From positions 1 to 55,495 of IMG/VR virus record IMGVR_UViG_3300043449_001017: a stretch of 55,495 nt of DNA; one strand, given 5' to 3'. Positions 1 through 55,495 of this stretch are shown here, one piece after another. A program made the position numbers and the translations under genes. How positions within the stretch are numbered: position 1 is the first letter of the stretch; the number at the start of each line of letters is the position of its first letter. The notes below the pieces were generated by a model. That model was given only the letters and a program-made list of their open reading frames with translations. It ran no database searches and was not told where the DNA came from. This DNA is from a virus (Duplodnaviria > Caudoviricetes).

Positions 1-13
1 ATTCGAATTAACC
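1..13. repeat. 13-nt terminal direct repeat, probable cohesive end (cosN)
   Basis: ATTCGAATTAACC at 1-13 is identical to 55483-55495. On the circle it lies about 185 nt upstream of terS, with partly symmetric flanks (TCGCG/CTCGA on the - strand). Confidence 0.7.
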
Positions 14-33
14 CGCGAGGGTTTTCCCTCGGA

Positions 34-40
34 AGGACCC
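34..40 (-). other. cosQ-like packaging termination signal
   Basis: The - strand reads GGGTCCT (the lambda cosQ heptamer), 20 nt before the 13-mer and on the side opposite the terminase genes, as in lambda. Confidence 0.6.
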
Positions 41-152
41 ATAGGGTTGCAATTGAGAATCAGTTGCAACAAGGTGCCAGGCCCTCGGGCCCGGTCCGGC
101 CCTGACAGCCCTGGCCATTGCGCCATCCCACCCCAGGCAAAGGCTAGGGGTG

Positions 153-253
153 AGATACAACAAAGGGCCCGCACAATGGCAGGCCCTCAGATACAACAAA
201 GGGCCAGGGGTGAGCCTGGCCCGGATGCAACAAAGGGGGCCAGCTGGCCCCCT
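153..253 (-). terminator. Three tandem intrinsic terminator-like hairpins
   Basis: GC stems at 234-253, 201-222 and 164-187, each followed on the - strand by TT(T)GTTG(T/C)ATC. They lie directly downstream of the 278-1387 gene. Confidence 0.65.
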
Positions 254-277
254 GTGATTTGGCTGTGATGCCTGGGC

Positions 278-1387
278 TCAGGCCCAGATCAGCTCAATTG
301 ATCCGTCTGCCAGGGCCTGCGGGCCAGGGGTGGCCTGCAGGCTGAAAGGATCAGCAATGGCACGGTCGGCCCCTTTGCTCACTTTTGTGCGCAGTATCAC
401 GGCAACCCCCTGAGGCTCGAGCCAGCGATTATCAGACTCGTCTCCTGCGATCGCAGGGAGGGTGACTGTTTGGCCCTTATGGGTGAGCCTGAGGGCCACA
501 GGCCAGGCCTGGCCCTTTGCTAGCAGCACAGGGGCGGCAAGTCTGAATCCTGCCAGGGCAGCTGCCATAGCGTCTGCCACAGCTGAGGGCCTGTCAGCTG
601 CCAGGCTGGCTGTGACATCCCAGCCAGCTGCCCTTTGTGCCAGGAGGCCAGTTTTGCCCTGCAGGGGGCTTTTGGTGTAGTCGTATAGAACTACTGAGCC
701 ATCAGCCAGGGGCAGGGCCAGGGCCTGGGCCAGGTTCATAGATTCCCCTGCCACGGCCTGCAGGCCGTAACGGATCCTGAGGGCCTGGGCCTCCTGGGGG
801 CTCAGGCTGAACCGGGCCAAATGGTGGGGGTGATCATCGGTGCCCCTGAGCCTCACGGCCAAGGGCAGGCCCAGGGCCTGAGCCTTGGCATAGTGCCTGC
901 CAATGGCCCACAGGATGGCCCGTTGATACGTGGCAGGCTCAGCCAGCATGGCAAGGGTGCGCCGACCCCTGGCAGCTGCCACAGCCTGGCTCAGGCCACC
1001 ATGGCCGGCCCAGTTAAGGCAGCCCATTGCGCAGCCAGGGGTGGCCCAGGGGCATCCATTGCGGGCCAGGCCCTTTGCCAGGAGGCCCTCGGATTCTGCG
1101 AGCTCTCGCAGGGCTGGGATGAAGGCCCGAGAGGGGATGCCGGCATTCTCAGGGGTGAGGGCTGCAGCCAGGGCCTTATGGGGCAGGTGATGCAAGATCA
1201 CAGGGAGGGCCTGGGCTGAGCCCTTGGCCAGCTTGGCATTGTCATCAGTTAGCAGGCCAGGAAGGGTGAGGCTGAACCGTGCCAGGAGGGCTGCCACGTC
1301 TGCAGGCAGACGGGAGGGGGCGCACGTGCGGGCCTGGGCTGTGGTTTGAATGGCAGGCATGGAAGAAAGGGGGATAAGGGTTTGCAT
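278..1387 (-). CDS. GP88-like phage protein (Cys-cluster, radical-SAM-like motif)
   Basis: CPWATPGCAMGCL Cys cluster, RLRGTDD, LYDYTK and GDESDNRW motifs recall the phage 'gene product 88' family. GGAGG RBS precedes the ATG at 1387. Confidence 0.65.
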   Translation of the reverse strand: MQTLIPLSSMPAIQTTAQARTCAPSRLPADVAALLARFSLTLPGLLTDDNAKLAKGSAQALPVILHHLPHKALAAALTPENAGIPSRAFIPALRELAESEGLLAKGLARNGCPWATPGCAMGCLNWAGHGGLSQAVAAARGRRTLAMLAEPATYQRAILWAIGRHYAKAQALGLPLAVRLRGTDDHPHHLARFSLSPQEAQALRIRYGLQAVAGESMNLAQALALPLADGSVVLYDYTKSPLQGKTGLLAQRAAGWDVTASLAADRPSAVADAMAAALAGFRLAAPVLLAKGQAWPVALRLTHKGQTVTLPAIAGDESDNRWLEPQGVAVILRTKVSKGADRAIADPFSLQATPGPQALADGSIELIWA

Positions 1388-1415
1388 TTGCGGGCCTCCT
1401 TTATGGCTGGCCTTT

Positions 1416-1468
1416 TGTAGCCATTGGCCACAAGCTTGGCAACAAAATTCTGTAGCCATTGGCCACAA
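1416..1468. promoter_or_regulatory. Two identical 18-bp near-palindromic operator-like sites
   Basis: TGTAGCCATTGGCCACAA at 1416-1433 and 1451-1468, just upstream of the GP88-like gene. Confidence 0.55.
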
Positions 1469-1475
1469 TTTTGTG

Positions 1476-1685
1476 CTAGTGGCGATCTGAGATCAGCCAG
1501 GCCTGGCCCTGAGGCTCAGGGGGCAGCTGGCCCGATCGGATGGCCCGTCTGAGGGCCTCCTGGGCTGCCCCTTGGGCAGCGTAACGCTGCAGGATGGCTG
1601 CCAGGTCTGGCCTGCCAGGGGTGGCCCAACCTATGGGCTGGCCCTGGCTGTTTGTGACCCGTTCGAGCTCAGGCATGGGGGGCAA
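1476..1685 (-). CDS. Hypothetical protein
   Basis: 69-aa ORF, co-oriented with its neighbours. Confidence 0.5.
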   Translation of the reverse strand: MPPMPELERVTNSQGQPIGWATPGRPDLAAILQRYAAQGAAQEALRRAIRSGQLPPEPQGQAWLISDRH

Positions 1686-1863
1686 GCTTAAAAGTGTGCT
1701 CCTGGCCCTTTATACGCTGCAGGAGGGCCAGCCTACGCTCAGCCACAGCCAGTGGCCGGGCCTGGGGGATGGCAGGCTGCCATCCCTGCTGAATGCCGCG
1801 CCAGATCAGAACGATCGCCATGGGAGGGCAAGGGTAAGGGTAAGGGTTGAAAGGGTGAGAGGC

Positions 1864-2118
1864 TCAGGCCAGCACAGGCAGCACAGGGGCCAGGCTGCCA
1901 TGGCACAGGGGGGCAGGAGGCAGGGCCTCCCCAGGCAGCACAGGCCGGGCCTGGGCCCGCTGAATTGTGCTGAGGATGGCCCCAGGGCTCACAGGCTGGC
2001 CCTGGGCCTGCAGCTGCAGGGCCACAGCCTTAAAGGGGGCCAACTGAGAGGGCAGGAGGGCAAAGGATTGGGCCAGGCATGCCAGGGCCCGCTCAGTGGT
2101 GGGGGTGGGGTTTGTCAT
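1864..2118 (-). CDS. Hypothetical protein
   Basis: 84-aa ORF with an ATG start and a pyrimidine-rich leader. Confidence 0.55.
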   Translation of the reverse strand: MTNPTPTTERALACLAQSFALLPSQLAPFKAVALQLQAQGQPVSPGAILSTIQRAQARPVLPGEALPPAPLCHGSLAPVLPVLA

Positions 2119-2294
2119 AAGAGGTAAGGATCAATGCCCCTAAATACTGAGGCCCAGGCCACCCCTAGCCCAGGGCCAGTGTGCCAGTTCTGGGATTGGT
2201 CTAGTTGCCACAGGCTGGCCACCCCTCGCGAGGGTGCGGGCCTGGGGTGGCATCTCACCCCAGGCATAAGGAGGGCCACAGCCTGGCCACCCCT

Positions 2295-2371
2295 GCCGAG
2301 CAGAGCACGCCTAACCGTGGGCCGAGCAGAGCACACCTAACCGTGGGCCGAGCAGAGCACACCTAACCGTG
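2295..2371. repeat. Three tandem 26-bp direct repeats
   Basis: GCCGAGCAGAGCAC(G/A)CCTAACCGTGG at 2295, 2321 and 2347. The last copy is 25 bp. Confidence 0.95.
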
Positions 2372-2393
2372 TTGGCTGTTTGTGAAAACAAAC

Positions 2394-2479
2394 AAGCAGC
2401 GCTGTTTAATTCAATGCAAACAGCGCTGATAAAAACAATAAAACAGAACGGTTTGTATTAGTTACAAACAGCACTGTTT
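2394..2479. repeat. Four imperfect 14-bp palindromes AAACAGCGCTGTTT at about 24-bp period
   Basis: AAGCAGCGCTGTTT 2394, AAACAGCGCTGATA 2418, AAACAGAACGGTTT 2441, AAACAGCACTGTTT 2466. Confidence 0.8.
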
Positions 2480-2495
2480 TAGTTGTTTATACAAA

Positions 2496-2560
2496 TAGTA
2501 CAAATGTACCAGTAGTACAAATGTACTATAGTACAAATGTACTATAGGACAAATGTACTA
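2496..2560. promoter_or_regulatory. Array of four cyanobacterial-type LexA (SOS) boxes
   Basis: TAGTACAAATGTACCA 2496, TAGTACAAATGTACTA 2513 and 2529, TAGGACAAATGTACTA 2545. The first three match the cyanobacterial LexA consensus RGTAC-N3-DGTWCB and the fourth has one mismatch. Confidence 0.8.
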
Positions 2561-2580: not shown

Positions 2581-2626
2581 TAGGCGGGGCGCTAAAACCG
2601 ACCCCGCCGTGTATGTGAATACCCCT

Positions 2627-2707
2627 TAAAAACCGGCCCTTCGCAAGTCCCTGGCCCTAAAAACCGGCACCCCGCAAGTCCCTAAGAACCGGCCGGCCGC
2701 AAGTCCC
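2627..2707. repeat. Three 25-bp direct repeats
   Basis: TAA(A/G)AACCGGC-N4-CGCAAGTCCC at 2627, 2658 and 2683, preceded by the hairpin GGCGGGG..CCCCGCC (2583-2608). Confidence 0.9.
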
Positions 2708-2864
2708 CAGGGCACAGCTCTTCCCACACCTCGAGCAGCTCGTGATCGTCAGCTGCCATCAGATCGTCGCGAGCTTGCAGCATCTGGTCTTCGAAAATGT
2801 CGCCGCGCTTGAGCATGGCCGCCACCAGGGAGGCCACAAGCTGTATCCGTTCGTCGTGGGTCAT
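2682..2864 (-). CDS. Hypothetical protein (60 aa)
   Basis: MTHDERIQL start overlaps the upstream stop (ATGA). Confidence 0.6.
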   Translation of the reverse strand: MTHDERIQLVASLVAAMLKRGDIFEDQMLQARDDLMAADDHELLEVWEELCPGDLRPAGS

Positions 2865-7261: not shown

Positions 7262-9907
7262 TCAACCCATCTCGAGCGTCTCAAGTGGGACCAATGTTGC
7301 GCGAGCCACGCCGCTGCCCTTGAAGCGGATCGAGGCGGTGCTGGCGGTCGCACCAGGCAGCCGGCGGAGGGCCTGACGGAACGCATTTCCGGCCCATGGG
7401 GTGTCTTTGAGTAGCGCCTGCAGGTTGGTGCTGTTGTTGGCGACCGCCAAGTGCCCACCGCCCACCTTGAGCCCGTAGCGGCCCAGGATCGTCTCGATCT
7501 CGTCCGAGGGGTGGTCCCGTCCGGGAATGGCGAAGATCACGCCGCGCTGGGCCATCTGCACCAGCTCGAGCACGCTCATGCGCTTGCCGCCGTCCACCTG
7601 CACGAGGTTCTGGAGGATGTGGTTGAGGCACTTCACCTCATCGGCGTCGGTGGCGTCGACCTCGCGGCTGTCCCAGTCCATCGAGTCGATCCACTGCCCG
7701 GCCATCTCGAGCGTCAGCTCGCCACCACCCCCAGGTTCCAGGCTCCAGGCGCCGGCCAGCAGGGTGCCGTACTGATCGCCAAAACGCTGGCCGAAGCGAC
7801 GGGAAAGGGCGGCTGCGAGCACCTTGCCGTTCTTTCGGATGGCGGGAATCTGCTGGAGAGTTCGTGCCACCAGGCGGCGCCCATTCTCTTCAGTGCAGGC
7901 ATTGAGAATCTGCTGCTCGAACTCATGCCAGTCGTCCTTGGCCATCTCGTCTTTGCGCAGGCTGAGAACGCAAAACCGGTCCAGGTCAGCACGCTGAATC
8001 AGTGCGACGTTGATTGAGCTAACGCAGAACATTGAGCGGATCTCAAATGTGTTCGAGCCGCCCGATGTTGTGCCTTTGTAGATCTTGCCGCCCTCGGAAG
8101 ATGCGATGCGTGCCAGGGCCAGGATGTTCTGAACGGTCTGCTTGTCCTTCTGCTCGTTCTGCTCGAGTTCGTCGAACACGACGGGAATGGCATCGGAGCG
8201 CAGCTGGCCGCGTAGGCCGGCCTCGGTGGTGCCGCCTGTGGCGCCCTCGAACATGCCTCCCAGAAGTGGCTTGATGAAGGAGCGCAGGATGGTGGTCTTG
8301 CCGGTGCCGGCACCGCCGGTGATCCAGATGTGCGGCCGCCAGTCGAGGGCGCCGCAGACGGGGGCCAGCACGATCCAGCCGAGCAGCAGGTGAGCGGATG
8401 CGGGTGTCTCCCAGCGGAAGCGCTCAGCGATGCTGCAGATTGATGTCGCCAGGTCGTCAGCGAGAGCATCGTGGCCGGGTCCGTCGATGGCTTTGGCGTT
8501 CTCGTAGAAGTAAAGGCTCGAGAATTTACGGGGCAGCTTGGTGATGGGGTGGGAGTGCCCGTTGATCACGAGGCGGTTGCCGAGGTGCAGGATCACCCGG
8601 CTGGCATCGGCCCAGGCACCACGGCCACGCACACGAGACGGGTCGTAGACGCCCTGGGCAATGCAGGCGCCCATGATTGCGTTCTGAGCCGAGTCCCAGT
8701 CGATGCGATTGCCCTGGGCATTGCTGAAGCCGGTGGCCCACCACTCGAGGGGTGCCAGCTGCAGGAAGTGGGACTTGGTGTGCTGAGCGGCGGTGAGAGG
8801 GATGACCTGACAGGCGTTCTTTGGCAGGTAGTAGTAGATCCCGTGATCGAAGCCGAGGGGGCGAAATGGGAGGGAATCGGCGGGGCCTGGAGCGGTAGCA
8901 GGATCCTCGAGATCGGGGTCCTCGACTGGAGTTTCAGCAGGTCCAGGAGCAATGTCTGCAGCGGGTGCGGGGGGCAAGTTGCGCAGGGCTGGCGGGCCGG
9001 GAAGGATGCGCCGTGGTGCGCGATAGCCGTGCTCCTTGGCCCAGTACCAGAAGGTGCCAGCGGTGATGTCTGCGCCACCAGAGCGGGCGACCTGATCGAT
9101 GCCACCCCACTGAGGGCTGTGCGAGGCCATCATCGAGATGGCGGTGTCGGCCGAGCCGCCGGCCTCCTCGCAGGCCTTGACCAGGCCCCAGAGGATGTTG
9201 CGGTAGATCGGATAGGTGTTGCCGCCAGGCACTCGAGGCGGGATCGCCTGCAGCGCCCGTTGCACCTCGTCGAGTCCCTGGGCTTCGTAATCAGTGAAGG
9301 TGCGGGCCTGCTCGTGCCGGGTGTCGACCACCGGCGCAGGAATGCACGATGTGATCACATCGGCGGTGTAGCGGTGACCGGTGCGATTGACGATTTTGGC
9401 GATTTCGCCGGTCTCGGGGTGCGGGGTGCCAGGGAGCCGCATGACGCGAGAGGGGTTCTTAAGCGCCCGGTCAGCGTCGGCGTAATTGAGCAGGCTGGTC
9501 TGGATGGTCTTCCACGCTTCAGGCGCCAGCGGCTCGGTGAGCACCCAGTAGGAGTGGATGGACTTGCCGCCCGTGTCGACCTGGATGGTGGGCTCGGGGA
9601 GGCCGAGTTGCTGCCATGCGGTGAGCTGCCAGTCCTTGGGCTTGTCGTCCCATTCGACAAAGAAGGCAATGCAATCGGTGATGTCGGTGTCTTTGTCGCC
9701 CCCGTTGTTGACGACGACGTAGACGCCCCGGCGATCGGCGGCCCATTCCTCGACAAGCGCCTTGGTGGGTTCACCCTTGGCACCGTGATCGTTGGCCTTG
9801 CGCGGGTCGGTCTTGGCGTAGAAGGCACGCAGGCGAATAGAGCCCTTGGGTTTTCCCAGGGCTGCCAGGAATTCACGGGCGACAGCAAAGTCAGGAGATA
9901 GGCTCAT
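7262..9907 (-). CDS. Primase-helicase (RepB-like primase, PriCT-like domain, P-loop helicase)
   Basis: FFVEWDD, TGGKSIHSYW and NPSRVMRLPGT primase motifs. GGAGTGKT Walker A and VVFDE Walker B. Confidence 0.85.
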   Translation of the reverse strand: MSLSPDFAVAREFLAALGKPKGSIRLRAFYAKTDPRKANDHGAKGEPTKALVEEWAADRRGVYVVVNNGGDKDTDITDCIAFFVEWDDKPKDWQLTAWQQLGLPEPTIQVDTGGKSIHSYWVLTEPLAPEAWKTIQTSLLNYADADRALKNPSRVMRLPGTPHPETGEIAKIVNRTGHRYTADVITSCIPAPVVDTRHEQARTFTDYEAQGLDEVQRALQAIPPRVPGGNTYPIYRNILWGLVKACEEAGGSADTAISMMASHSPQWGGIDQVARSGGADITAGTFWYWAKEHGYRAPRRILPGPPALRNLPPAPAADIAPGPAETPVEDPDLEDPATAPGPADSLPFRPLGFDHGIYYYLPKNACQVIPLTAAQHTKSHFLQLAPLEWWATGFSNAQGNRIDWDSAQNAIMGACIAQGVYDPSRVRGRGAWADASRVILHLGNRLVINGHSHPITKLPRKFSSLYFYENAKAIDGPGHDALADDLATSICSIAERFRWETPASAHLLLGWIVLAPVCGALDWRPHIWITGGAGTGKTTILRSFIKPLLGGMFEGATGGTTEAGLRGQLRSDAIPVVFDELEQNEQKDKQTVQNILALARIASSEGGKIYKGTTSGGSNTFEIRSMFCVSSINVALIQRADLDRFCVLSLRKDEMAKDDWHEFEQQILNACTEENGRRLVARTLQQIPAIRKNGKVLAAALSRRFGQRFGDQYGTLLAGAWSLEPGGGGELTLEMAGQWIDSMDWDSREVDATDADEVKCLNHILQNLVQVDGGKRMSVLELVQMAQRGVIFAIPGRDHPSDEIETILGRYGLKVGGGHLAVANNSTNLQALLKDTPWAGNAFRQALRRLPGATASTASIRFKGSGVARATLVPLETLEMG

Positions 9908-10029
9908 TAGGTCTCTGCAGGGAAGGGGACTGGGTCTGCGGCTCCCCACGCAGGCCCACACATTTCAGTTCGTCAGAGGTTGGTTCTGGGAACCACTCGA
10001 CGAGCTTGTCGAAGAATCGTTGCAGGGGC

Positions 10030-10401
10030 TCAGACACCTCGGAAGGGCTCTGTTGCGATTCGTAACGCTTCATCGATGGAGCGGACGATGCCGGCGAGGC
10101 CACCGGCTGCTCGTATGTGCTCAATGAACCGCCTCTGTTCAGGTGTGGCGCGGCCTGTGGCGGTTTTGATCTCGATGGCAGTGAAGATCGCGACCTTCCG
10201 TCCGACCATTTCGGGCGTGATGGTGATGGTGCGGTAGCCGAGGAGATCCGACCCGCCGGGGGAGGCAACGCCGAACTGAACCCAGCGACCGGTGCGCGGG
10301 TCTGGGAGCTTGCCGGAGTTGTTTCGCCAGGCGCGGAAGCCGGGAAGAGTGCCAACTGCGAGACGGATCCGTTGCTGGAGTTCCGTCTCTTGATTGGCCA
10401 T
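10030..10401 (-). CDS. VRR-NUC family nuclease
   Basis: GGSDLLG...AIEIKT..GR...EQ..F motif. Confidence 0.9.
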   Translation of the reverse strand: MANQETELQQRIRLAVGTLPGFRAWRNNSGKLPDPRTGRWVQFGVASPGGSDLLGYRTITITPEMVGRKVAIFTAIEIKTATGRATPEQRRFIEHIRAAGGLAGIVRSIDEALRIATEPFRGV

Positions 10402-10426
10402 GGATCTGGGCAGTTGCTGGCCTCCA

Positions 10427-11797
10427 TCATGCAGCCGTCCGCCGCTGGCGTGCTGCCAGGACGTGCCGGGCCCAGCCCTCGGGGTGCTTCATGCCCCTAC
10501 GGCGACCAACCTCGATCAGCTGCTGCAGGCTTTGGGCCTGGCCCTGCTCCTTGCGGTGCTGCTTGCGGCGCAGCTCCTCGGGGTCGACTTCAACCAGCTC
10601 GCCGTCGACCTGCTCGGGGCCCCGTACTACCGCGTCGCGTTGGTACTCGTGACCACAGCAGGGACAGACAGGAGCAGGCGGGTGGCAGGCGTAGCACTCC
10701 GGGCATTCGCGCACCGGTGGCGCCTGGGTGCCGGCACGCTTGGGTTTGGCGTCGAGGGTCCACTCACGAGGATCCTGCGGCAGGCCATGGGTGAACACGC
10801 AGGAAGCATGGTCGAGCACGATGAGATCGGGCTTACCGGGTGCGGTGCGCAGCCCCCGGCCGACCGACTGCAAGTACATCGTGAGCGACTTGGTGGGGCG
10901 CAGCAGGATGACGCAGCCGATCTCAGGGCAGTCGACACCAGCGACCCAGAGGGCGCAATTGCAGACGATGTCGATGGTGCCCTGGCGCAGGCCGGTCAGC
11001 GCCTGGGTGCGCTCTTCACGGGTGGAGTCGCCGGAGATGGCAACAGCGCGGTAGCCGGCTGCAGCAAAGGCAGAAGCGGTGTGCTCTGCGTGTTTGATGT
11101 TGACGCAGAAGGCAACTGCCCGGCGACCGTGGGCGTATTTGCGGTAGTGAGCAACGGCGTCTCCGATGATGGATGGCCGATCAACGGCCTCGGCCAGCTG
11201 GTCTAGCGCGAAGTCGCCACCGCGAGAGCGGATGTTGGCGAGATCGGGCTTGGTGGGCGCGTAGTAGCGGATGGGCGCCAGCAGGCCCTCGGCGATCAGG
11301 TCGGCGGTGGAGCAGGTGGGGATGATGGTGTCGAACAGCTCGCCCAGGCCACGGCCATCCAGTCGGCAGGGTGTGCCGGTGAGGCCGAGTATTGGCGGAT
11401 TGCCGGCGGCAGCCAATACCTGGCGATAGGTGTCCGCGACGGCTAGGTGGCACTCGTCGATGATGATCAGGCCGGGCTTGCGCACCACCGGCCGGCGGAC
11501 AGCGGTCTGCACCGACACCACCTGCACCGGCTGGTACGGGTTGCGGGGCATGCCGGCCATGATGAAGCCGTGGGGGATGTCGGCAGCTGCGAGGCGGCGA
11601 GCGGTGTCATCGAGGATCTCGCGCAGGTGGGCGAGGAACCAGACATCGTTGCCGCGCTCGATGGCGGATTTGATGATTTCGGCAGCGGTGTGGGTCTTGC
11701 CGAAGCCAGTGGCGGCGCACAGCAACGGCGCACGGAAACCAGCCCGATAGGCGGCCCGCACGTCCTGAATAGCTTTCTGTTGACGGGGTCTGAGCAT
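10427..11797 (-). CDS. SF2 DEAD/DEAH-box helicase with C-terminal Zn finger
   Basis: ATGFGKT, DECH, TGTP, QSVGRGLR and CPEC..CPCC. Confidence 0.92.
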   Translation of the reverse strand: MLRPRQQKAIQDVRAAYRAGFRAPLLCAATGFGKTHTAAEIIKSAIERGNDVWFLAHLREILDDTARRLAAADIPHGFIMAGMPRNPYQPVQVVSVQTAVRRPVVRKPGLIIIDECHLAVADTYRQVLAAAGNPPILGLTGTPCRLDGRGLGELFDTIIPTCSTADLIAEGLLAPIRYYAPTKPDLANIRSRGGDFALDQLAEAVDRPSIIGDAVAHYRKYAHGRRAVAFCVNIKHAEHTASAFAAAGYRAVAISGDSTREERTQALTGLRQGTIDIVCNCALWVAGVDCPEIGCVILLRPTKSLTMYLQSVGRGLRTAPGKPDLIVLDHASCVFTHGLPQDPREWTLDAKPKRAGTQAPPVRECPECYACHPPAPVCPCCGHEYQRDAVVRGPEQVDGELVEVDPEELRRKQHRKEQGQAQSLQQLIEVGRRRGMKHPEGWARHVLAARQRRTAA

Positions 11798-11949
11798 GGT
11801 CTTGACCGCAGTGGTCAGCAATGGATAGATCGAAAAACCGAGCAATCATAAGCACTTAACCGGGACGTTCCGTGAAGTGCGAAGAAACATGACAGGAGAA
11901 CAGGAAGGTGCGTGAACTAGCGGTAAGCTTGCGTCCACAAGCACCACAG

Positions 11950-22562: not shown

Positions 22563-23672
22563 ATGAAGCGGTGGGAAAGCGACTCGTCGGTGCCAGGGCT
22601 AGGTGTCATGGTGCTGCCGTCCGGCGTTCGCACCTGGTATTTGCGCTATCGCGAGCCGGACGGAAAGCAGCAAACGCAGAAAATCGGCCGCGACGGCATC
22701 ATCAACAAAACGATCGCCAGAAAGCAGGCGGTGCAGATCCTGGCCGAAGTCGCCAAAGGCAATGCGCCAGCGACGGCTCGCAAGCAGCGCCTGAATGCAC
22801 CAAAAATGATCGAGCTACAGGCTCGGATGGAGAAGGAACACTACGCCACGCTGCGCCAAAAGACCGCCTCCAACTACGAGCAAATCTGGCGCCTTCATGT
22901 CGCACCAACGCTCGGCTCCAGTCGGGTGCGCGATGTCACTCGTGAGCAGGTGATCCAGATGCTCAGCAAGCTGGCACCAGTGCAGCGAAACCGTGTGCTG
23001 CAGTGCCTCAAGGCGGCATTCACCATGGCCGAGGTATGGGGCTTGCGCCCTGAAGGCACCAACCCCTGCCGAAAAATCTCCAAGACCCCTGAGCGAATCC
23101 GCACTCGCTACCTCGCCGACCCCGAACGGGCCCGACTACTGGCATCGCTTGACGCTATGGGCACCACGCCACTTCGGTGGCGATTTGCGCAGCTCGTGCG
23201 CCTCCTGATGCTCACCGGCTGCCGTGTGGGCGAGATCTGCCGTGGTCGCTGGGAATGGCTTGACGACGATTTTCGGCTGATGGTGATACCAGCAGAGCGG
23301 CACAAGACGGGTGAGCGAACAGGCGAGCAGCGCGTGGTGCATGTTCCTCCTGCAGCAGCTCGCATCTTGAAGGAACTGCGGCAGCAATCCCATTCGCCTT
23401 GGATCATTGCTGGCGACGGCGAGAAGCACCTGGTGGGCTACCAAAAACTTTGGCTGGAGCTGCTGCGCACGGCCAAGATCGACAATCTGAAGGTTCACGA
23501 TCTGCGGCACAACTTTGCTTCTGTGGCACTGACCAAGGCCGGACTGACACTGCCCCAGGTCGGCAGTCTCCTCGGCCATGCAAGCCCCTCAACAACAAAG
23601 CGCTACGCCCACCTCATCGACGAGGGAGCGCAGCGGATGGTTGCAGACGTAGCTGGGAAAATTGGGCTCTAA
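22563..23672 (+). CDS. int: Tyrosine integrase
   Basis: N-terminal arm-binding domain, TGCR, HDLRH and LLGH...T.RY catalytic motifs. Confidence 0.95.
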   Translation: MKRWESDSSVPGLGVMVLPSGVRTWYLRYREPDGKQQTQKIGRDGIINKTIARKQAVQILAEVAKGNAPATARKQRLNAPKMIELQARMEKEHYATLRQKTASNYEQIWRLHVAPTLGSSRVRDVTREQVIQMLSKLAPVQRNRVLQCLKAAFTMAEVWGLRPEGTNPCRKISKTPERIRTRYLADPERARLLASLDAMGTTPLRWRFAQLVRLLMLTGCRVGEICRGRWEWLDDDFRLMVIPAERHKTGERTGEQRVVHVPPAAARILKELRQQSHSPWIIAGDGEKHLVGYQKLWLELLRTAKIDNLKVHDLRHNFASVALTKAGLTLPQVGSLLGHASPSTTKRYAHLIDEGAQRMVADVAGKIGL

Positions 23673-23959
23673 AGCGCCCAGGGACTGGCCTTGTAGGCCG
23701 GCTCGTCGTTTTCGGTGAGCACTGGCTGGGCCATCTCGTTGCAGATCATGTCGTGCAACGTGACATAGGCTTTCATCAGCTTGAAGTGATCGGCGAGAGC
23801 GGTGTACTCACTCTCGCCGACAATGCCAAACGCGTCGGGGTCTGCGTAGACCAGGAACATCATGGCCGCTTCTTGGATGCGACCGTCCCGGTAGAGCTGG
23901 AAGGCTGTTTCAAGGCCATCCTCGTAGCTGACAGTACCGTCGCGGGTGGCGAATCTCAC
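23669..23959 (-). CDS. Hypothetical protein
   Basis: GTG start overlaps the nrdJ stop. Confidence 0.6.
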   Translation of the reverse strand: MRFATRDGTVSYEDGLETAFQLYRDGRIQEAAMMFLVYADPDAFGIVGESEYTALADHFKLMKAYVTLHDMICNEMAQPVLTENDEPAYKASPWAL

Positions 23960-26223
23960 TGGGGTTTGGCAGCGGCAAACAGGCATTTGTCTCCGTCGCA
24001 CCCAGCAGGGCCCGCTTCGACAAGCTCTCCCACGTCATAGCGCTTCAGAGCTGCAAAGAAGTCCTGTTCGCCACGACGGGTTTCCACCTCAGCCGAAAGC
24101 TGGTCGAAAGTTGCCTTGTCGATCGGCTCGAACGGCAGACGGGGGAACGTCTCGTTGGCGTCAAAGCGGGCAAGCAAGGCCGCCGAGATGTAGCCCTCGT
24201 TGTCCTGGATGGCTTGGTAGATCGCGTCGGCGAGCGGCTCGATCTCGTTCTCCCGGTACTCAATCGTGGCAGAGGTGTTGTGCGTGGTGTAGTGCTTCTG
24301 CACCTGCATGTAGAAGTCGAACTGAGCCAGCGCCGAGATCTGGCTGATGTCGACCGCATCAGCGCCAGGCATGTCAGCCCAGGGCACGGCGGTGGGGATT
24401 TCCACCAGCCACTCGGTGCAGCGCTCGTCGAATGGATTGTCGAGCAGCTTGCCGGTCTCATCCTTGTCGGACTGGCTCGGGACCACGCTGTAGCCGTAGT
24501 CGATGCAGGCCATGGCCACCGGATCGTTCTTGCGGAACGTGATGCGGCGGATGAAGCGCTGAGACTTCGGCGGGTGCCAGCCAGGCGCAGCGCCGGTGAG
24601 CAGGCTCTTGGTGCCGGCGGGCTGCACGGTGGTGCAGCGGTTGGGGCGCTTCAGGCCATGGCGGTCGCAGTATTCCCAGACAGTGCCCTCAACCACGTTG
24701 CGCCAGCGCATCAGGTACGAGGCCTCAGCGGCCTTGTAGGCCTTGCCTTCGTCGGTGTCGGGGCGGCCAGCCACAAACCACTCCAGCCACTCAACGCCGA
24801 ATGCCTTCACGAAGAAGTCAAAAAGGCCGGTGAAAGACACGCCCACGATGGGGTCCAGCTCGCGGCTGACGCGGTAGCGCTCCACCTCAAAGCGGTGATT
24901 CAACAGGCAGGCCACGGCCAGGCCACCGGCACGGAAGGCGTCGTCCTGACCCCTGCTGTCAGTGGGATCGATCTGATTCAGGTGGATCTCAGACAGATTG
25001 CAGTGGAAGTCGGTGCCGAGGATCTCGCCGCAGGGGTTCAAGCCGTAGCGGCCGAGGCGGTGATCGAGTTCCTCCACGTCCATCTCGGGGCGCAGGTGCA
25101 GCAGCATGCTGGCGGCAGCCTCCTCGCCCTCCCGGCAGTACACGTCCACAAATTCCCGGCGGTACGCATCATTCCTGAGCAGGTCGCGGTTGGAGCGGGC
25201 GATAGCTTCGGGAGCGAACTGGATCGCGCCCTCACCGGAGTAGAACTGCTTGGTGACTGCCTCGAGCACCACCTCGCGACTGGGGCGCTCGTGGAACACT
25301 CTGGTGTGGTTAGCCATGCGCAGGGCGTCGCGCTCAGGGTCGATGCGCCAGGCGCCGTCGTCGCCCTGGAACCACAGGTTGTCCTTCGCGGCAGATGCCT
25401 CAAGGTCGTCTGCCGCGAATTGGCGCATGCCGGCGCTGCGGCGGATGTTGCCAGCCACGATGGTCACGGCAGCCTCATCGATCAGCAGGCAGCACTCCAC
25501 GGAGGTGAGCTGGCGGCCCTGGGCTTTCGACAGGATTCGGGCGACGCGCTGATACAGGTCGGGCAACTTGGCAGGATTGGCCATGCCACCGAAGCCCTTG
25601 AGGCTGGCGCCGGCGGGGCGAACGTTACCCAGGTCGATCTTCACCGCTACGTCGCCGGTGAACTCGAGATGCGTCGACAGGTGAAGCAAGGCCCGGTAGC
25701 TCTCAACCCAGCCTGCGCGGCTATCGCCGACCTCGATGATGGCGCTGTTGCCCCGGATCGAAGTGAAGGTTTCGTCGTCGCGCTCGCTCTCAGGCTTGGT
25801 GCCGATCGCAGTGACCTCCTCGATCACCAGGCGATTGCGGATTTCAGGCAGCTGGTCGATCAGGTGCGGCTCGATGATGGCGCCGGTGCCGGAGCCCATC
25901 ATTGCCAGGTCCATCATCAGCGCGAACGCTTCCCAGTCGATGAGATCCGTCGAGGTGCAGTTGTAGGCGCCGGAAAAGTTCTCGGGCTTCTCGATCCAGG
26001 GCGTCCCACCCACCCACAGCCAGCGGCCGGAGGGCAGGCAGCGCAGCTGCTCCTGCTGCTGACGGATCAGGTGGGTCTCGGCCTCTGTGAGCTTGCCAAG
26101 CCCCACCAGGCCATCGACGGTGCGCTGGGTGACCTCGCGCCAGCTCTCGCGGCCCTCAGGGCGCTTACGGGAGTAGGTGCGGTAGAAGACAGGATTGGCT
26201 GCAGGTGCGGTAGTGGGAAACAT
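23956..26223 (-). CDS. nrdJ: Class II (B12-dependent) monomeric ribonucleotide reductase
   Basis: PSGRWLW, AYNC, VAGNIRRSA, NPCGE, TTVQPAGT and C-terminal CDGDKC. No beta-subunit gene present. Confidence 0.92.
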   Translation of the reverse strand: MFPTTAPAANPVFYRTYSRKRPEGRESWREVTQRTVDGLVGLGKLTEAETHLIRQQQEQLRCLPSGRWLWVGGTPWIEKPENFSGAYNCTSTDLIDWEAFALMMDLAMMGSGTGAIIEPHLIDQLPEIRNRLVIEEVTAIGTKPESERDDETFTSIRGNSAIIEVGDSRAGWVESYRALLHLSTHLEFTGDVAVKIDLGNVRPAGASLKGFGGMANPAKLPDLYQRVARILSKAQGRQLTSVECCLLIDEAAVTIVAGNIRRSAGMRQFAADDLEASAAKDNLWFQGDDGAWRIDPERDALRMANHTRVFHERPSREVVLEAVTKQFYSGEGAIQFAPEAIARSNRDLLRNDAYRREFVDVYCREGEEAAASMLLHLRPEMDVEELDHRLGRYGLNPCGEILGTDFHCNLSEIHLNQIDPTDSRGQDDAFRAGGLAVACLLNHRFEVERYRVSRELDPIVGVSFTGLFDFFVKAFGVEWLEWFVAGRPDTDEGKAYKAAEASYLMRWRNVVEGTVWEYCDRHGLKRPNRCTTVQPAGTKSLLTGAAPGWHPPKSQRFIRRITFRKNDPVAMACIDYGYSVVPSQSDKDETGKLLDNPFDERCTEWLVEIPTAVPWADMPGADAVDISQISALAQFDFYMQVQKHYTTHNTSATIEYRENEIEPLADAIYQAIQDNEGYISAALLARFDANETFPRLPFEPIDKATFDQLSAEVETRRGEQDFFAALKRYDVGELVEAGPAGCDGDKCLFAAAKPQ

Positions 26224-26274
26224 CGGTCGCGAAAAGAGAGCCCGGCGTTTTTGGCACCGGGCAGTGGGTATAAG

Positions 26275-26907
26275 TCAGGAGTCCGCGCCGTAGAGCGCTT
26301 CGCTGATGATCGGAAATTCGGCCGAGAAAATGGCCTTGATCGCGTCGGCGATTTCGCGGTGCTCAAGCTGGGTCGCCGGATCGCACCGAACCTCAAGATA
26401 GTGAATCCATGAGCGCAGCGTGCCGTGCATATAGAGCGTGGTCGGCGTGCAGAGCGGCAGGATCCGGCGGGCGGTTTCCTTGGCAATGCCGAGGCCCAGC
26501 ATCTCCTCGTAGAGGTCGTAGGCGTTCTCTAGGTGGTTGCCGAGCACATAGTCCCAGCTCGATTTTGCGACATCAGCAAGATCGTCGATGCTGTTCTGGC
26601 GGTTCTTGGTGTCCTGGCGACGCAAGGCAGGTGGCTTGGGCTTGCCAGTCACGGCATAGCGGGTGCTGAACTCCTGGAAGCTGAAGCTCCGGTGTCGAAG
26701 GATCTGCGCCGCAATGTCCCGCTCGGTATCGATCTGGACGCACATGGATGCCATTTCAAACGGCGACCAGTGCCTGTGCCTGATCAGATAGCGCAGCAGG
26801 CGGGGCCCGGTCTCCTCGTTGTCCTGGTTGGCCGGGTTGCTCACCCGCGCCATCTTGACGATCAGTCGCTCAGCATCCGGGGTGCAGTGGATCAGTTTGA
26901 CTCCCAT
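26275..26907 (-). CDS. thyX: FAD-dependent thymidylate synthase
   Basis: HWSPFE and RHRSFSFQEFSTRY signature. Confidence 0.95.
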   Translation of the reverse strand: MGVKLIHCTPDAERLIVKMARVSNPANQDNEETGPRLLRYLIRHRHWSPFEMASMCVQIDTERDIAAQILRHRSFSFQEFSTRYAVTGKPKPPALRRQDTKNRQNSIDDLADVAKSSWDYVLGNHLENAYDLYEEMLGLGIAKETARRILPLCTPTTLYMHGTLRSWIHYLEVRCDPATQLEHREIADAIKAIFSAEFPIISEALYGADS

Positions 26908-27413
26908 GAGGGCATCACCTGGGGTTGAAGATTGTAATGGCCGACTTCGGCGTAGGAGATGTCCGGGATCCCAGCGGTCAGCATGAAGACCATCTGGCCG
27001 ATCTTGAGCCCGGGCCACAGGCGCAGTGGCCGCAGCTGTCGGGCATTGGTGAGCTCCAGCGTCAGCTTCGACCCGGTCCATTGCGGATCCGCAAAGCCCG
27101 CATGGCTGTGTTCTAGACCTTCGCGAGCGCGACTTGATTTGAGAAAGAAGAACCCTGCCACGTCGTCGGGCATGTTGAACGTCTCAAACGTCTCGGCGAG
27201 GATCCACTGGCCGGGCTTGAGCAGATAGGGATCGTCCTTACTGCAGTCGCTGATGTCGACGCGCACCAGCTCGTCGGCGGTGGCGCTCTCAATCATGATC
27301 TCGCTGCCGAGCAACAGGTCGTAGCTAGCCGGGTTGAGCTGCTCAACATCAAATGGGACGATCATCCGATCTTCTTCGCAGAAGCGGCGGATCTCGCGAT
27401 CGTGGAGGATCAA
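26892..27413 (-). CDS. dcd: dCTP deaminase
   Basis: LNPASYDL, KSSRAREG, AGFADP..G..LTLE and KIGQMVF. Confidence 0.92.
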   Translation of the reverse strand: MILHDREIRRFCEEDRMIVPFDVEQLNPASYDLLLGSEIMIESATADELVRVDISDCSKDDPYLLKPGQWILAETFETFNMPDDVAGFFFLKSSRAREGLEHSHAGFADPQWTGSKLTLELTNARQLRPLRLWPGLKIGQMVFMLTAGIPDISYAEVGHYNLQPQVMPSWESN

Positions 27414-27487
27414 GGCTTGTCCTTATGGGGCTCGGCCAGCCTATTCGCGAGTGGTCGCCCCAGGCCCGCGCTTCACGGACTGAAACA

Positions 27488-52911: not shown

Positions 52912-54765
52912 TCACCACTGGCGGACAAAACTCCGTTTTGGAGCCTTGTTCGATCTTAGCGGGGCCTTGCGCTCGGCTTCTACGGGCTTTTCTAGCCTTT
53001 TTTCCAGCTGATCCCACATTGTTCTGCGGTCGTACCGCTGGTACATGCGATTTAACGCTGCATACGCATACACAAGCTCGTCCAGCGCTTCATTTCTCTG
53101 ACTCGACTTCTTGACCCAGACCCTCTCGGGGTAGCCGCGCACAAATCGCGTGATCTGCTTCTCGGCCGTCAACTCTTCGAAATACTCGAGCCCGGCCTGG
53201 GCATAGAAGTGCAAAAATCCTGGACCTGGTTCATTGTGCTTCAGCCGGCCAAACAGCAGGCTTTTCACCGTGTCGCCACCCACCGGATAGACCTCAGCGC
53301 CTTTCTTCAGGGCCTTGCCCTTGTAATTCAAGTCCACCTTGGTGGGCTTACCAATCGGCGGCTTGCCCTTCTGGCTCTGACCTTTCACGGCAATCACGCC
53401 TAGGTTCTGCCGCTCGCGGGCGTACTGGTACACCTCCATCGTGTGGTGGCCGCCAGAGTCGATGCAGACCACATCTGGCCGCAACTCGCAGCCAAGCGCA
53501 TGTGGAAACGGCCGTGTCACGACCTCGTCAAGCTGCTTCCATGGCTCGGGCCTGCTCGGATCGCCATGAATCACAACCCTGTCGACCAGCCAGCCTTCCT
53601 CCTCGCGGCCCCACGCCCAGACGCTGAGACTGAGGCGGTTGTCCTGCACGTCGCATCCAATCGTCAGGGCCGACGCTTCGGCAGGGACCAGCCTGGGCTC
53701 GTATAGCTCGGCCCGCTCGAGCAGGCTGTCGGCGCCGACCTTTGCGGCATAGTCGTCTTCCCAGCTTTCGCCGAGCACGGTGTTTACGAATGTCTTGAGC
53801 GCCTCGGCGTCATTCTTGGCCTCGAGGAACTCGTCTTTCAGGTTGTCCCAGCTTGCATTCGGGCTGTAGCTGTATGCCGCCCAGATGTGAAAGCTGACGT
53901 GCTTGCCATTGCCAGGAGTCGTCGGGCGCCACTCACCGCGCTCAACCATCCATCGCTTCTTCGAGTGTGGAATAAAAACGCCACAGCTCTCGCAGACGTA
54001 GTGAACCGGGTCGGTCGGTTCATTCCATCGCATCCCGCTCCATTTCAGGTACTGCATGTGCCCGCAGTCGGGGCACGGCACGAAGTAACGACGCTGGTCG
54101 CCTTGTTGAAACAGTCTTTCGATGCGACTGGCATCCTTCAGCGTCGGTGTGCTGCCAGCGATGATCTTGCGATTCCAGTAATACTCCGTTCGGCGGATGC
54201 CCAGCTTGATCTGGTCGCCCTCAGGGCCGGCGCTCGGTGGATAGCCGTCTGTCTCGTCAAACATCACGATCCGGCGGCTGACACGACGAAAGCCACGCGG
54301 ACTGTTGGCACCCACCAGGCCGAGCGTTCCACCCGGATACTGCTTCTGCAGGATGGTGTTGGCGCCGTCCTTGGCCTTGCTGTCACTCACCAGGCCGCGC
54401 AGCACCGGCACATCCCTGAGCATCGGTGCGATCTCTTCCTTTGAGTAGCCCTGGGCGTCCTCAATGGTGGGCAGCACCAGCATCATCGGGCAGGGATCTT
54501 GGTGGATGTGAAATGCGATGCAGGCATTCAGGATCTTGGTGTACCCGACACGAGCAGATTTCATCACCGACACCTGCTCCACCCTTGGATCGGTGACGGC
54601 ATCCATGATCCCCTTCTGGTAGGGGAGCGTGTGCCAGCGGCCAGCCTCAGCGCTGCTCTCGGCCGACAGTGCAAAGTGCTTGTCTGCCCACTCGCTTAGC
54701 GAGAGCTTCTCGGGCGGCTTCCATGCGCGGAGTGCCGAGCTGGCGATGTCCTCAACTGTCGCCAT
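52912..54765 (-). CDS. terL: Terminase large subunit (lambda gpA family)
   Basis: KSARVGYT, FDETDGYP, GSTPT, CPDCG, DVQ, DSGG and RNEALD. Confidence 0.96.
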   Translation of the reverse strand: MATVEDIASSALRAWKPPEKLSLSEWADKHFALSAESSAEAGRWHTLPYQKGIMDAVTDPRVEQVSVMKSARVGYTKILNACIAFHIHQDPCPMMLVLPTIEDAQGYSKEEIAPMLRDVPVLRGLVSDSKAKDGANTILQKQYPGGTLGLVGANSPRGFRRVSRRIVMFDETDGYPPSAGPEGDQIKLGIRRTEYYWNRKIIAGSTPTLKDASRIERLFQQGDQRRYFVPCPDCGHMQYLKWSGMRWNEPTDPVHYVCESCGVFIPHSKKRWMVERGEWRPTTPGNGKHVSFHIWAAYSYSPNASWDNLKDEFLEAKNDAEALKTFVNTVLGESWEDDYAAKVGADSLLERAELYEPRLVPAEASALTIGCDVQDNRLSLSVWAWGREEEGWLVDRVVIHGDPSRPEPWKQLDEVVTRPFPHALGCELRPDVVCIDSGGHHTMEVYQYARERQNLGVIAVKGQSQKGKPPIGKPTKVDLNYKGKALKKGAEVYPVGGDTVKSLLFGRLKHNEPGPGFLHFYAQAGLEYFEELTAEKQITRFVRGYPERVWVKKSSQRNEALDELVYAYAALNRMYQRYDRRTMWDQLEKRLEKPVEAERKAPLRSNKAPKRSFVRQW

Positions 54766-55297
54766 ACTCCTCGGCCAGTTCCTCGAGGGCTTCACGCACG
54801 ATGTCTTCGAGCACCACCACCTGATCCTGCGTCAGGTCTGGGATGCGCTGCTTTGCCTTGCTTGGGATTCCCAGCACCTTGGTGCGACTGATGGTGATGA
54901 CCTCAACCCACTTTGCCTGCACCTCAGCCGCTCGGACCAGCAGCCCTTCCTTTTCCTTGCGCTCCAGCTCGAGCAGCTCGGCCTTCAGGTACTCGGTGCG
55001 GGCACGCGATTCGTTGTAGTCAGGGACAATGTCCCCTGGCTCGGGGTCAGTGAGTGGTCGGTCTCGTTTGGGTCGCTCTGGAGGAAAGGCGCTCTCGCCC
55101 ATCGGGGGCTTGGGACCGATGCCGACTTTTTGCATCGTGTTGGCAGCCCAGTGCTCGCGTAGCGTCTCGCTGTCGATCAGCTCTTGCCCGTCTCTGGTCC
55201 GAACGACCGGGACGCGACCTTCCTTGACCGCTTTGTAGACGGCCTGGCGTGTCACCCCGAGGACTCGGCCAGCTTCTGCCTTGGTGATGAGTGGCAT
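54752..55297 (-). CDS. terS: Terminase small subunit (Nu1-like)
   Basis: N-terminal wHTH (AGRVLGVTRQAVYKA) and ARTE..KA...ELE....G.LV. Confidence 0.9.
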   Translation of the reverse strand: MPLITKAEAGRVLGVTRQAVYKAVKEGRVPVVRTRDGQELIDSETLREHWAANTMQKVGIGPKPPMGESAFPPERPKRDRPLTDPEPGDIVPDYNESRARTEYLKAELLELERKEKEGLLVRAAEVQAKWVEVITISRTKVLGIPSKAKQRIPDLTQDQVVVLEDIVREALEELAEEYGDS

Positions 55298-55482: not shown

Positions 55483-55495
55483 ATTCGAATTAACC
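55483..55495. repeat. 13-nt terminal direct repeat, probable cohesive end (cosN)
   Basis: Identical to 1-13. Confidence 0.7.

Follow-up and report, generated by a model that had tools for sequence, protein, structure and literature searches.

Why should a bacteriophage genome be depleted of the CpG dinucleotide at just one of its two ends? The question is raised by IMG/VR record IMGVR_UViG_3300043449_001017 (Duplodnaviria; Caudoviricetes), whose 55,495 bp are the window analyzed here; the record contains no N and represents the whole genome of a complete lambda-like siphovirus with cohesive (cos) ends. A preliminary description of its first 2.3 kb had proposed a camouflaged pioneer segment, which enters the cell ahead of the remaining genome and evades restriction or other DNA sensing while its genes disarm the host. 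Our analysis points to a different identity. In our judgment, the DNA from about position 14 to 2455 probably represents an allele of an accessory operon that is exchanged between phages, here called the GP88 cassette, which encodes a GP88-family protein and three further open reading frames (ORFs), orf84, orf50, and orf66, and in whose lineage selection continues to act against CpG.

The depletion is large, with about two-thirds of the CG dinucleotides lost, and confined to this end. When the CpG observed/expected (o/e) ratio was calculated per 500-nt window, the first 5 of 111 windows gave values of 0.24 to 0.45 and the other 106 gave 0.70 to 1.25. The best two-rate change point fell at position 2570, separating 80 CG in 2,570 nt (31 per kb) from 4,838 CG in 52,925 nt (91 per kb). 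The symmetrized ratio rho*(CG) was 0.29 for positions 1 to 2294 and 0.97 for the rest; none of 1,013 windows of the same size elsewhere fell below 0.85 (mean, 0.98; standard deviation, 0.047), so that the bias is highly significant (z = −14.4). Dinucleotide-signature distances (delta*) were 0.255 to 0.272 for windows in the island, compared with a mean of 0.067 and a maximum of 0.125 elsewhere, and no other 2 kb of the genome is as atypical as the cassette end. Other dinucleotides in the island are shifted as well (TG/CA, 1.51 versus 1.21 elsewhere; AG/CT, 1.31; CC/GG, 1.25; AC/GT, 0.54; GA/TC, 0.68). The hand counts of the preliminary description (7 CG in 601 to 900, 3 in 1861 to 2100, and 21 in 2701 to 2940) were exact, and the compositional switch does lie where it had been placed, at the repeat block (2295 to 2708).

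Within these limits the depletion is neither complete nor directed at particular sites. The terminal ~100 nt around cos are not depleted (7 CG), and the same holds for the 26-bp repeats at 2295 to 2372 (7 CG in 78 nt). Noncoding DNA at 31 to 150, past the last terminator, contains 4 CG against 12.2 expected. Sixty-seven CG are still present in the depleted window, and 4-mer palindromes containing CG occur in positions 1 to 2294 at close to the numbers predicted from dinucleotides (CCGG, 8 versus 11.2; GCGC, 6 versus 10.4; CGCG, 3 versus 2.6; TCGA and ACGT, 3 each and likewise close to expectation). These 4-mer counts show no avoidance at the level of sites.

The coding sequences carry the same signature in several contexts. 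NCG codons account for 4 of 131 NCN codons (3%), compared with 497 of 1,964 (25%) in eight backbone genes, and junctions between a codon ending in C and one beginning with G number 20 against 58.9 expected. CGN codons specify 14 of the 23 arginines in GP88 compared with 401 of 450 in the backbone, with AGG reaching 35% of Arg codons; the arginine total is itself lower than in the nine tabulated CpG-normal orthologues, six of which (five being closer relatives) have 30 to 32 and the other three 31 to 36. GCG and CCG gave way mostly to GCC and CCT rather than to GCA and CCA. Both the skew toward A, L, G, P, and Q noted earlier and the effect on codons are real, and the pattern of codons, junctions, and arginines indicates that the cause acts at the nucleotide level and not on the proteins. 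Translational selection, in which the cassette genes would be tuned to a host tRNA pool that disfavors NCG and CGN, accords with the codon figures and with the low synonymous divergence (dS) described below, but codon-boundary CpG is avoided equally, the noncoding tail and intergenic DNA are also depleted, capsid and other backbone genes are unaffected, and the phage has no tRNA genes; we consider this explanation highly improbable. A GC-rich mutational island was also considered and ruled out for the window: G+C at the three codon positions is 0.70/0.55/0.67 in GP88 and 0.61/0.44/0.75 in the large terminase gene, and the G+C excess reflects amino acid composition, not third positions.

The segment had further been described as saturated with GGCC and CCWGG, and both words are truly frequent: positions 1 to 2294 contain 84 GGCC against 44.6 ± 5.5 in dinucleotide-preserving shuffles (the rest of the genome has 20.8 per 2,294 nt) and 51 CCWGG against 26.3 ± 4.5. 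Under a second null model, in which protein, CpG count, and G+C stay unchanged, GGCC stands at 38 versus 24 in the window (~1.6-fold) and at 33 versus 17 and 39 versus 23 in CpG-normal orthologues. Because the excess is equal or greater in these orthologues, it characterizes the cassette family as a whole and reflects the choice of GCC and GGC codons in Ala- and Gly-rich proteins. CCWGG rises from 4 to 9 through 14 to 19 to 23 to 25 as CpG drops (3 to 5, 7 to 10, and 17 to 21 under the second null), and its excess largely follows arithmetically from high G+C without CpG, since in G+C-rich DNA lacking CG a C reaches a G only via A or T. CCTNAGG, said to be everywhere, occurs only 4 times. The CGATCG (HIP1) sites singled out earlier are present at 1533 and 1812, the third lying at 448 and not at 388; one of the three is kept in the related locus L001 and none in L004, and given this poor conservation their survival is not meaningful. 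As a separate observation, the CpG-normal cassettes L052, L058, L002, L017, L066, and L084 contain 5 to 14 CGATCG against ~0.8 expected and up to 5 copies of the HIP1-like GCGATCGC against 0.1 expected, with flanks near expectation, and this excess is a second cassette-specific oligonucleotide oddity. Chi-like oriented motifs were likewise considered; the enriched 7- and 8-mers are mostly coding (GCC-CTG-GCC and GCC-CAG-GCC), and no frame-independent motif emerged.

Where the CpG poverty resides became clear from about 140 related loci, for which a GP88 tree of 85 rows was built. At all loci, GP88 and the 1 to 2.5 kb upstream of it form a G+C-rich block (0.62 to 0.75) in a backbone of 0.45 to 0.65, the sole exception being L116 (gene, 0.55; backbone, 0.40). 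One clade of the tree (43 of 85 rows) contains all depleted genes, with CpG o/e of 0.28 to 0.84 in 42 rows and 0.98 in one; the other 42 rows range from 0.97 to 1.40. GP88 is most depleted in L001 (0.28), the window (0.33), and L004 (0.39). Cassette flanks lie at ~1.0 where known, and CpG and G+C both step at the same point, the cassette border. The GP88 cassette is present at this place in every related genome examined, with alleles and accessory ORFs that vary. A genome-contig scan found only three contigs of metagenome-assembled genomes, and the cassettes on all three are CpG-normal.

Four sibling phages (L089, L092, L094, and L115) separate the cassette from its setting. At the amino acid level, their small terminase subunit (TerS), large terminase subunit (TerL), and portal protein are 81 to 84%, 89%, and 80 to 82% identical to those of the window, which makes the siblings as close as L001 (TerL, 91%); their GP88 proteins are 56 to 58% identical, and the genes have a CpG o/e of 1.21 to 1.44. 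In nucleotide comparisons, the siblings begin to match the window at 55495 (55490 in L089) and have no homology to it across the cassette; on the inner side, the operator palindromes, 25-bp repeats, and leader of the window have clear homologues in L089 as far as about 2456. These breaks at cos and near 2456 identify the sharp borders as recombination joints. Since the cassette that the siblings have at this end is CpG-rich, CpG poverty is not required by position. Part of the cassette is replaced in L001 by unrelated DNA that is equally CpG-poor (0.22), and the signature therefore belongs to the lineage of the locus and not to one gene. Clade-specific accessory genes were examined as a possible cause, but none is common to the strongly and mildly depleted cassettes yet absent from normal ones, in a clustering made noisy by spurious ORFs in GC-rich DNA. 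Taken together, CpG poverty belongs to the cassette lineage and to neither the backbone nor the position.

Divergence from L001 also sets the cassette apart, dS being 0.36 for GP88 and 0.12 for orf66 (dN/dS, about 0.2) and 0.57 to 1.22 for six backbone genes. When 17 pairs of relatives were compared, similarity was higher in the cassette than in the flank for 13 and lower for 4. A swapped module that is younger than its backbone might be a passive relic, recently imported from an element with a CpG-poor whole genome and not yet drifted back. Such an import accords with close relatives on short contigs (P0001 to P0009, 81 to 92% identical) and with a sister group of GP88 loci (L099, L103, L108, L110, L111, L125, L127, L130, and L132, also L075 and L082) on 55- to 109-kb contigs of ~50% G+C, in which the gene order differs and backbone CpG o/e is 0.74 to 0.90. 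The sister-group cassettes are lower still (0.45 to 0.64) and remain G+C-rich; across the ~140 loci, no backbone falls below 0.70, and the CpG o/e of each CpG-poor cassette lies below that of the backbone in which it sits. A donor with the same genome-wide bias, a case that the preliminary description had itself raised, was not found among these loci. Moreover, >30 diverse mild cassettes at 0.6 to 0.85 sit in backbones of 1.0 to 1.1 across deep branches, and the CpG-site rate excess presented below is seen on branches within the depleted clades. We regard passive import as quite unlikely. In L099, an orf66 homologue follows GP88.

The manner in which CpG was lost bears on mutation versus selection. 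Substitutions were polarized by parsimony on codon alignments, and rates at CpG sites were compared with those at other C or G sites. In the strongly depleted clade (window, L001, and L004), where numbers are small, transitions affected 12 of 344 CpG sites versus 40 of 2,884 others (2.5-fold; P = 0.01) and transversions 18 of 344 versus 43 of 2,884 (3.5-fold; P = 4 × 10−5), with third-codon-position excesses of 4.4-fold and 3.5-fold, respectively. The mildly depleted clade showed excesses of 1.5-fold for transitions and 1.3-fold for transversions (both P < 0.001), and three CpG-normal clades gave 0.8- to 1.2-fold, which is not significant. The noncoding tail between GP88 and cos had a CpG o/e of 0.53 in the strong group, 0.85 in the mild group, and 1.13 in the normal group. 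Methylation followed by deamination would raise transitions only. The loss by transitions and transversions, in all codon contexts and in noncoding DNA, thus argues for selection on the nucleic acid and not for deamination alone. Decay through CpG methylation by an enzyme of host or phage, of the kind found in vertebrates and in Mycoplasma with M.MpeI, accords with the raised TG/CA and with the slight lead of transitions at third positions; transversions at CpG are, however, raised as much, GCG and CCG did not turn mainly into GCA and CCA, and a methylase would hit the whole genome rather than 2.3 kb. A search for a C5-methylase gene (PF00145) found none in the phage genome, with control matches in 9 of 14 genomes. 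We judge such decay to be very unlikely.

The segment had been assigned to the end predicted to enter the cell first, and this end is a genuine one. Identical 13-nt sequences occupy both termini, the 14th base differs, and the cohesive ends in this family of phages are likely 13 nt long; the record is classed as linear without end repeats, presumably because so short a repeat was not counted. Forty-one of 74 related contigs with a 60- to 800-nt tail past GP88 stop 24 to 36 nt beyond a GGGTCC motif, as the window does, and the remaining 33 mostly break within tandem repeats (e.g., L005, L016, L022, L038, L051, and L065). Many contigs consist of the cassette only (2 to 4 kb), and these, together with the breaks in the tandem repeats between GP88 and cos, indicate that both cassette borders are repeat-rich family-wide. 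Permuted contigs run from position 1 of the window directly into 55495, and position 1 is a true physical end. As in lambda-type cos packaging, the ends are fixed and share a short cohesive sequence, and TerS and a gpA-type TerL adjoin one of them, the end opposite the cassette. The terminase-distal end of lambda is packaged last and ejected first; by analogy, the cassette end would be packaged last and leave first.

A terminal position suggests a mechanical explanation, namely that the last-packaged DNA bends most tightly, that CpG is the least bendable step, and that terminal CpG was consequently selected out. The available part of one study reports that the bendability quotient of CpG is the most negative in Loop-seq and links depletion to predicted bendability (PMC11282364). 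The border is nevertheless a step at the cassette joint and not a gradient, the outermost 100 nt are not depleted, siblings with an 89% identical TerL package CpG-rich ends, and sister-group cassettes are CpG-poor yet not followed by terminase genes (TerS or TerL in the available downstream DNA of 0 of 11 GP88 loci). Packaging mechanics is in our view extremely improbable as the cause.

The pioneer segment deserves a closer look, as it too builds on this geometry: the end would enter first and pause, and a CpG-free leader would escape restriction or a sensor while its genes disarm the host. Several observations agree with it, including the real end opposite the terminase genes, the depletion of noncoding DNA past the last terminator, a pressure that is selection-like, lineage-specific, and possibly host-specific, and cassette exchange of a kind typical of host-interaction modules. 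A repeat-rich noncoding block borders the terminal genes, as is described in the available part of one report for the border between the first-step-transfer (FST) and second-step-transfer (SST) regions of T5 (PMC10644984). On the other side, siblings with the same packaging genes and operator block have cassettes of 1.2 to 1.4 at the same end, CG persists at 67 places with palindromes near expectation, and the DNA between genes and promoter, which is needed inside the cell before transcription, is CpG-normal. The ends are 13-nt cohesive ends without long terminal repeats, and we know of no two-step entry in lambda-like siphoviruses. The four genes, which had been credited with disarming the host, showed no homology to known pre-early or anti-restriction proteins and gave no anti-defense or other functional match in Pfam, PHROGs, or PADLOC (0 of 4 in the last). 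A pioneer role is therefore, in our estimation, unlikely. The preliminary description is thus partly supported: its geometry holds, its proposed function gains no support, and the object is a terminal accessory cassette, or compositional island, that has been purged of CpG.

The reading that we favor, an exchangeable operon under selection, can be put as follows. In these cos siphoviruses, the GP88 cassette always occupies the interval from a conserved operator/promoter block to cos, and alleles are swapped with the physical end and a site just downstream of the promoter as joints. Continuing selection would act against the CpG dinucleotide in DNA or transcript, and CpG would be removed by transitions and transversions alike, in all three codon contexts, by replacement of arginine, and in noncoding DNA. 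Because CpG-rich alleles occur at the same position, with the same promoter block and packaging, the cause should lie with the host of the lineage, with the cassette itself, or with an unseen reservoir. One possible agent, which we put forward tentatively, is a host-specific CpG-directed factor, such as a nuclease or sensor, met by the operon alone or before the rest of the genome. The proposed pioneer segment, with its order of entry, would be one form of this idea. More speculatively, and with a low probability in our estimate, freshwater bacteria may have an immune or degradative activity against unmethylated CpG in incoming DNA or early transcripts, which the purged operon escapes, acting before the phage shields the rest of its genome. 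If true, this activity would be a bacterial counterpart of TLR9 or ZAP, and siblings with CpG-rich alleles would infect hosts without it. The family offers a natural controlled comparison, with the same position, operator block, and packaging genes and with alleles that span a CpG o/e of 1.4 to 0.28, which makes the cause of CpG loss testable.

Several points weigh against selection on the cassette. The cassette leader (2295 to 2455) is not CpG-poor, and a simple sensor model at the DNA or RNA level has to invoke constraint on the repeats there. The low dS could reflect synonymous constraint instead of recent exchange. By the parsimony counts, every clade, the CpG-normal ones among them, has lost more CpG than it gained, so that the relative rates alone are trustworthy. 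Substitutions in the strong clade may date from an unseen donor population or carriers and not from these backbones, and the backbone is known for only 2 of the 3 cassettes of that clade. Both the promoter and the terminators were predicted from consensus sequences. To our knowledge, no CpG-directed sensor has been described in bacteria. The sequence was found only in metagenome runs (6 listed, labeled freshwater metagenome or metagenome, with no RNA run among them).

The features of the cassette, its borders, and the opposite end are collected in Table 1.

Table 1. Coordinates of the GP88 cassette, its borders, and the terminase genes in the window
Feature	Position	Strand	Remarks
Cohesive-end (cos) sequence ATTCGAATTAACC	1..13		Identical copy at 55483-55495
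Conserved terminal sequence (reverse complement GGGTCC...GCGGGTTAATTCGAAT)	1..45		End point of unrelated assemblies; CpG not depleted
CpG-depleted block	100..2294		rho* about 0.3
Three successive GC-rich hairpins, each followed by UUUGUUG (terminator-like)	163..256	-	Between GP88 stop and cos
GP88-family protein, 369 amino acids	278..1387	-	ORF open upstream to 1468; start of relatives corresponds to 1387
orf66, small conserved protein	1476..1676	-	Conserved in L001 and L004; phrog_14769 at 1e-6, function not assigned
orf50, small conserved protein	1669..1821	-	Conserved in L001 and L004; cluster in 75/96 cassettes; no family match
orf84	1864..2118	-	Shortened version of an Ala/Pro-rich protein that is longer in relatives, with the ARPVLPGEALPPAP motif in common; no family match
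Three 26-bp direct repeats, cassette-specific	2295..2372		Common to L001
Terminator-like hairpin in 24-bp repeat array (2385-2446)	2397..2428	-	Between promoter and genes
Inner recombination joint	2456..2456		Homology to sibling L089 ends about here
Four 16-bp palindromes TAGTACAAATGTACTA (operator-like), in AT-rich DNA	2496..2560		0/100 shuffles reach the count; unique in genome
Promoter-like site	2552-2525	-	Promoter scan; overlaps operator-like palindromes
Three 25- to 29-bp direct repeats, conserved regulatory block	2624..2708		Homologous in L089
Large terminase subunit (TerL), lambda gpA type	52912..54795	-	phrog_15 at 4e-250
Small terminase subunit (TerS)	54752..55297	-	phrog_57 at 1e-26; 198 nt from right physical end

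From its layout, the CpG-poor block appears to form one leftward operon, transcribed in the order orf84, orf50, orf66, and GP88 toward the three predicted terminator hairpins just inside cos. These hairpins fold together with a minimum free energy of −78.3 kcal/mol (z = −3.1), and a terminator scan alone finds two of them. The palindromes upstream are candidate binding sites for a regulator, or iterons, judging from their form (TAGTACA-N2/3-TGTACTA, 16 to 17 bp, in tandem, with 4 copies in the window and 5 in L089 at 7517 to 7602); they are ~90% conserved between phages with different cassettes. A 177-amino-acid ORF lies antisense to three cassette genes (1594 to 2127, plus strand) and is probably spurious, because CTG/CAG and GCC/GGC codons are mutual reverse complements and keep both strands open. 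Rfam gave no match in the whole window.

GP88 passes the threshold of PF17338 (34.1 bits versus a cutoff of 24.4; residues 127 to 362 of the long ORF) and also matches phrog_1617 at 8e-25. PF17338 is a family without assigned function, and a literature search on it found nothing. Relatives number 548 in metagenomes, and a tblastn search of GP88 at an E value of 1e-5 against 50,697 phage records found none; DNA of positions 1 to 2600 likewise gave no match in these records. Across 24 aligned sequences, three cysteines (C112, C119, and C123) are invariant and form a C-X6-C-X3-C arrangement, as are the motifs RLRGTD, TAS-A-DR, and GD-SD-RW; the cysteine spacing does not conform to the CX3CX2C motif of radical S-adenosylmethionine (SAM) enzymes. 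A confident predicted model (predicted local distance difference test score, 86) found nothing in Foldseek at an E value of ≤0.001. VIA-align returned radical SAM enzymes in 13 of its top 14 rows, with weak Z scores of 4.9 to 6.4, and the model weakly suggests a resemblance to radical SAM partial barrels that is a lead and not an assignment. In the Protein Atlas, DUF7227 was the sole lead for the cassette proteins (0.89 to 0.90).

The remaining genome is that of a tailed phage with the genes for small terminase, gpA-type large terminase, portal, capsid, and tape measure all on the minus strand, a primase/helicase block at 7262 to 11845, and a RecT-like/PDDEXK pair. Among isolates in the 50,697 phage records, Synechococcus phage S-LBS1 has the closest TerL, at only 46% identity. 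A tyrosine integrase, a ribonucleotide reductase-like protein with a class II insertion domain, ThyX, and a fusion of lysozyme and M15 peptidase (endolysin) are encoded at 22563 to 28546; given the integrase, the phage is probably temperate, and it carries genes of nucleotide metabolism. A distal tail protein of 1,097 amino acids (29779 to 33072, minus strand) lacks a counterpart in L001, L092, L115, and L003, four of the five related genomes compared, for which reason it cannot be correlated with cassette type, and in L094 only its first 132 residues match (71% identity). Host-recognition genes thus appear from these sequences to be mosaic even among phages with a common cassette or backbone.

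Among known systems, the cassette recalls the morons, or accessory cassettes, that in the concept of Hendrix and Juhala reportedly lie next to cos in lambdoid phages. It shares with them predicted terminators and promoter-like signals, a deviant composition, a module junction on the cos side, and exchange between related phages. It differs in being present in every family member examined, with the allele swapped and the GP88 core conserved, in an oddity that consists of CpG loss and not of a G+C shift, and in a promoter/operator block that belongs to the backbone. For cos phages in general, the physical end fixes one border of a terminal module that can be exchanged.

A second comparison is with T5-like phages, in which, according to the available part of the report, sensitivity to restriction depends solely on sites in the FST block, which is followed by a repeat-rich border (PMC10644984). 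Like that block, the cassette consists of terminal genes of mostly unassigned function at a physical end, with a repeat-rich noncoding border. In contrast to T5, with its terminal repeats of ~10 kb and an FST block of ~9 kb, the cassette has 13-nt cohesive ends and measures 2.4 kb; it lacks A1-, A2-, or dmp-like genes, Pfam and PHROGs giving only GP88 and two unassigned families, and the avoided unit is a dinucleotide and not a particular recognition site. The phage is also lambda-like and, by its integrase, probably temperate, and the repeat block at 2295 to 2708, which may correspond to the T5 injection stop region, also looks like an operator/promoter region.

CpG content of phages tends to track that of their hosts, and what drives the CpG bias of bacteria and phages is not known; known bacterial defenses show no CpG preference, and CpG is the least bendable step, as far as the accessible portion of one account extends (PMC11282364). 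A literature search on CpG depletion in bacteriophages returned no case confined to one region or operon of a phage. The closest parallels are the CpG suppression of vertebrate viruses, associated with evasion of ZAP and TLR9, and that of Mycoplasma with CpG methylases. The cassette differs from them in that no CpG sensor is known and no CpG methylase was found in the phage that carries it, in that depletion is limited to 4% of the genome of a bacterial virus, and in that transversions have as large a share as transitions. What it has in common with them is a CpG o/e near 0.3, raised TpG and CpA, and a loss that extends over synonymous sites and codon boundaries.

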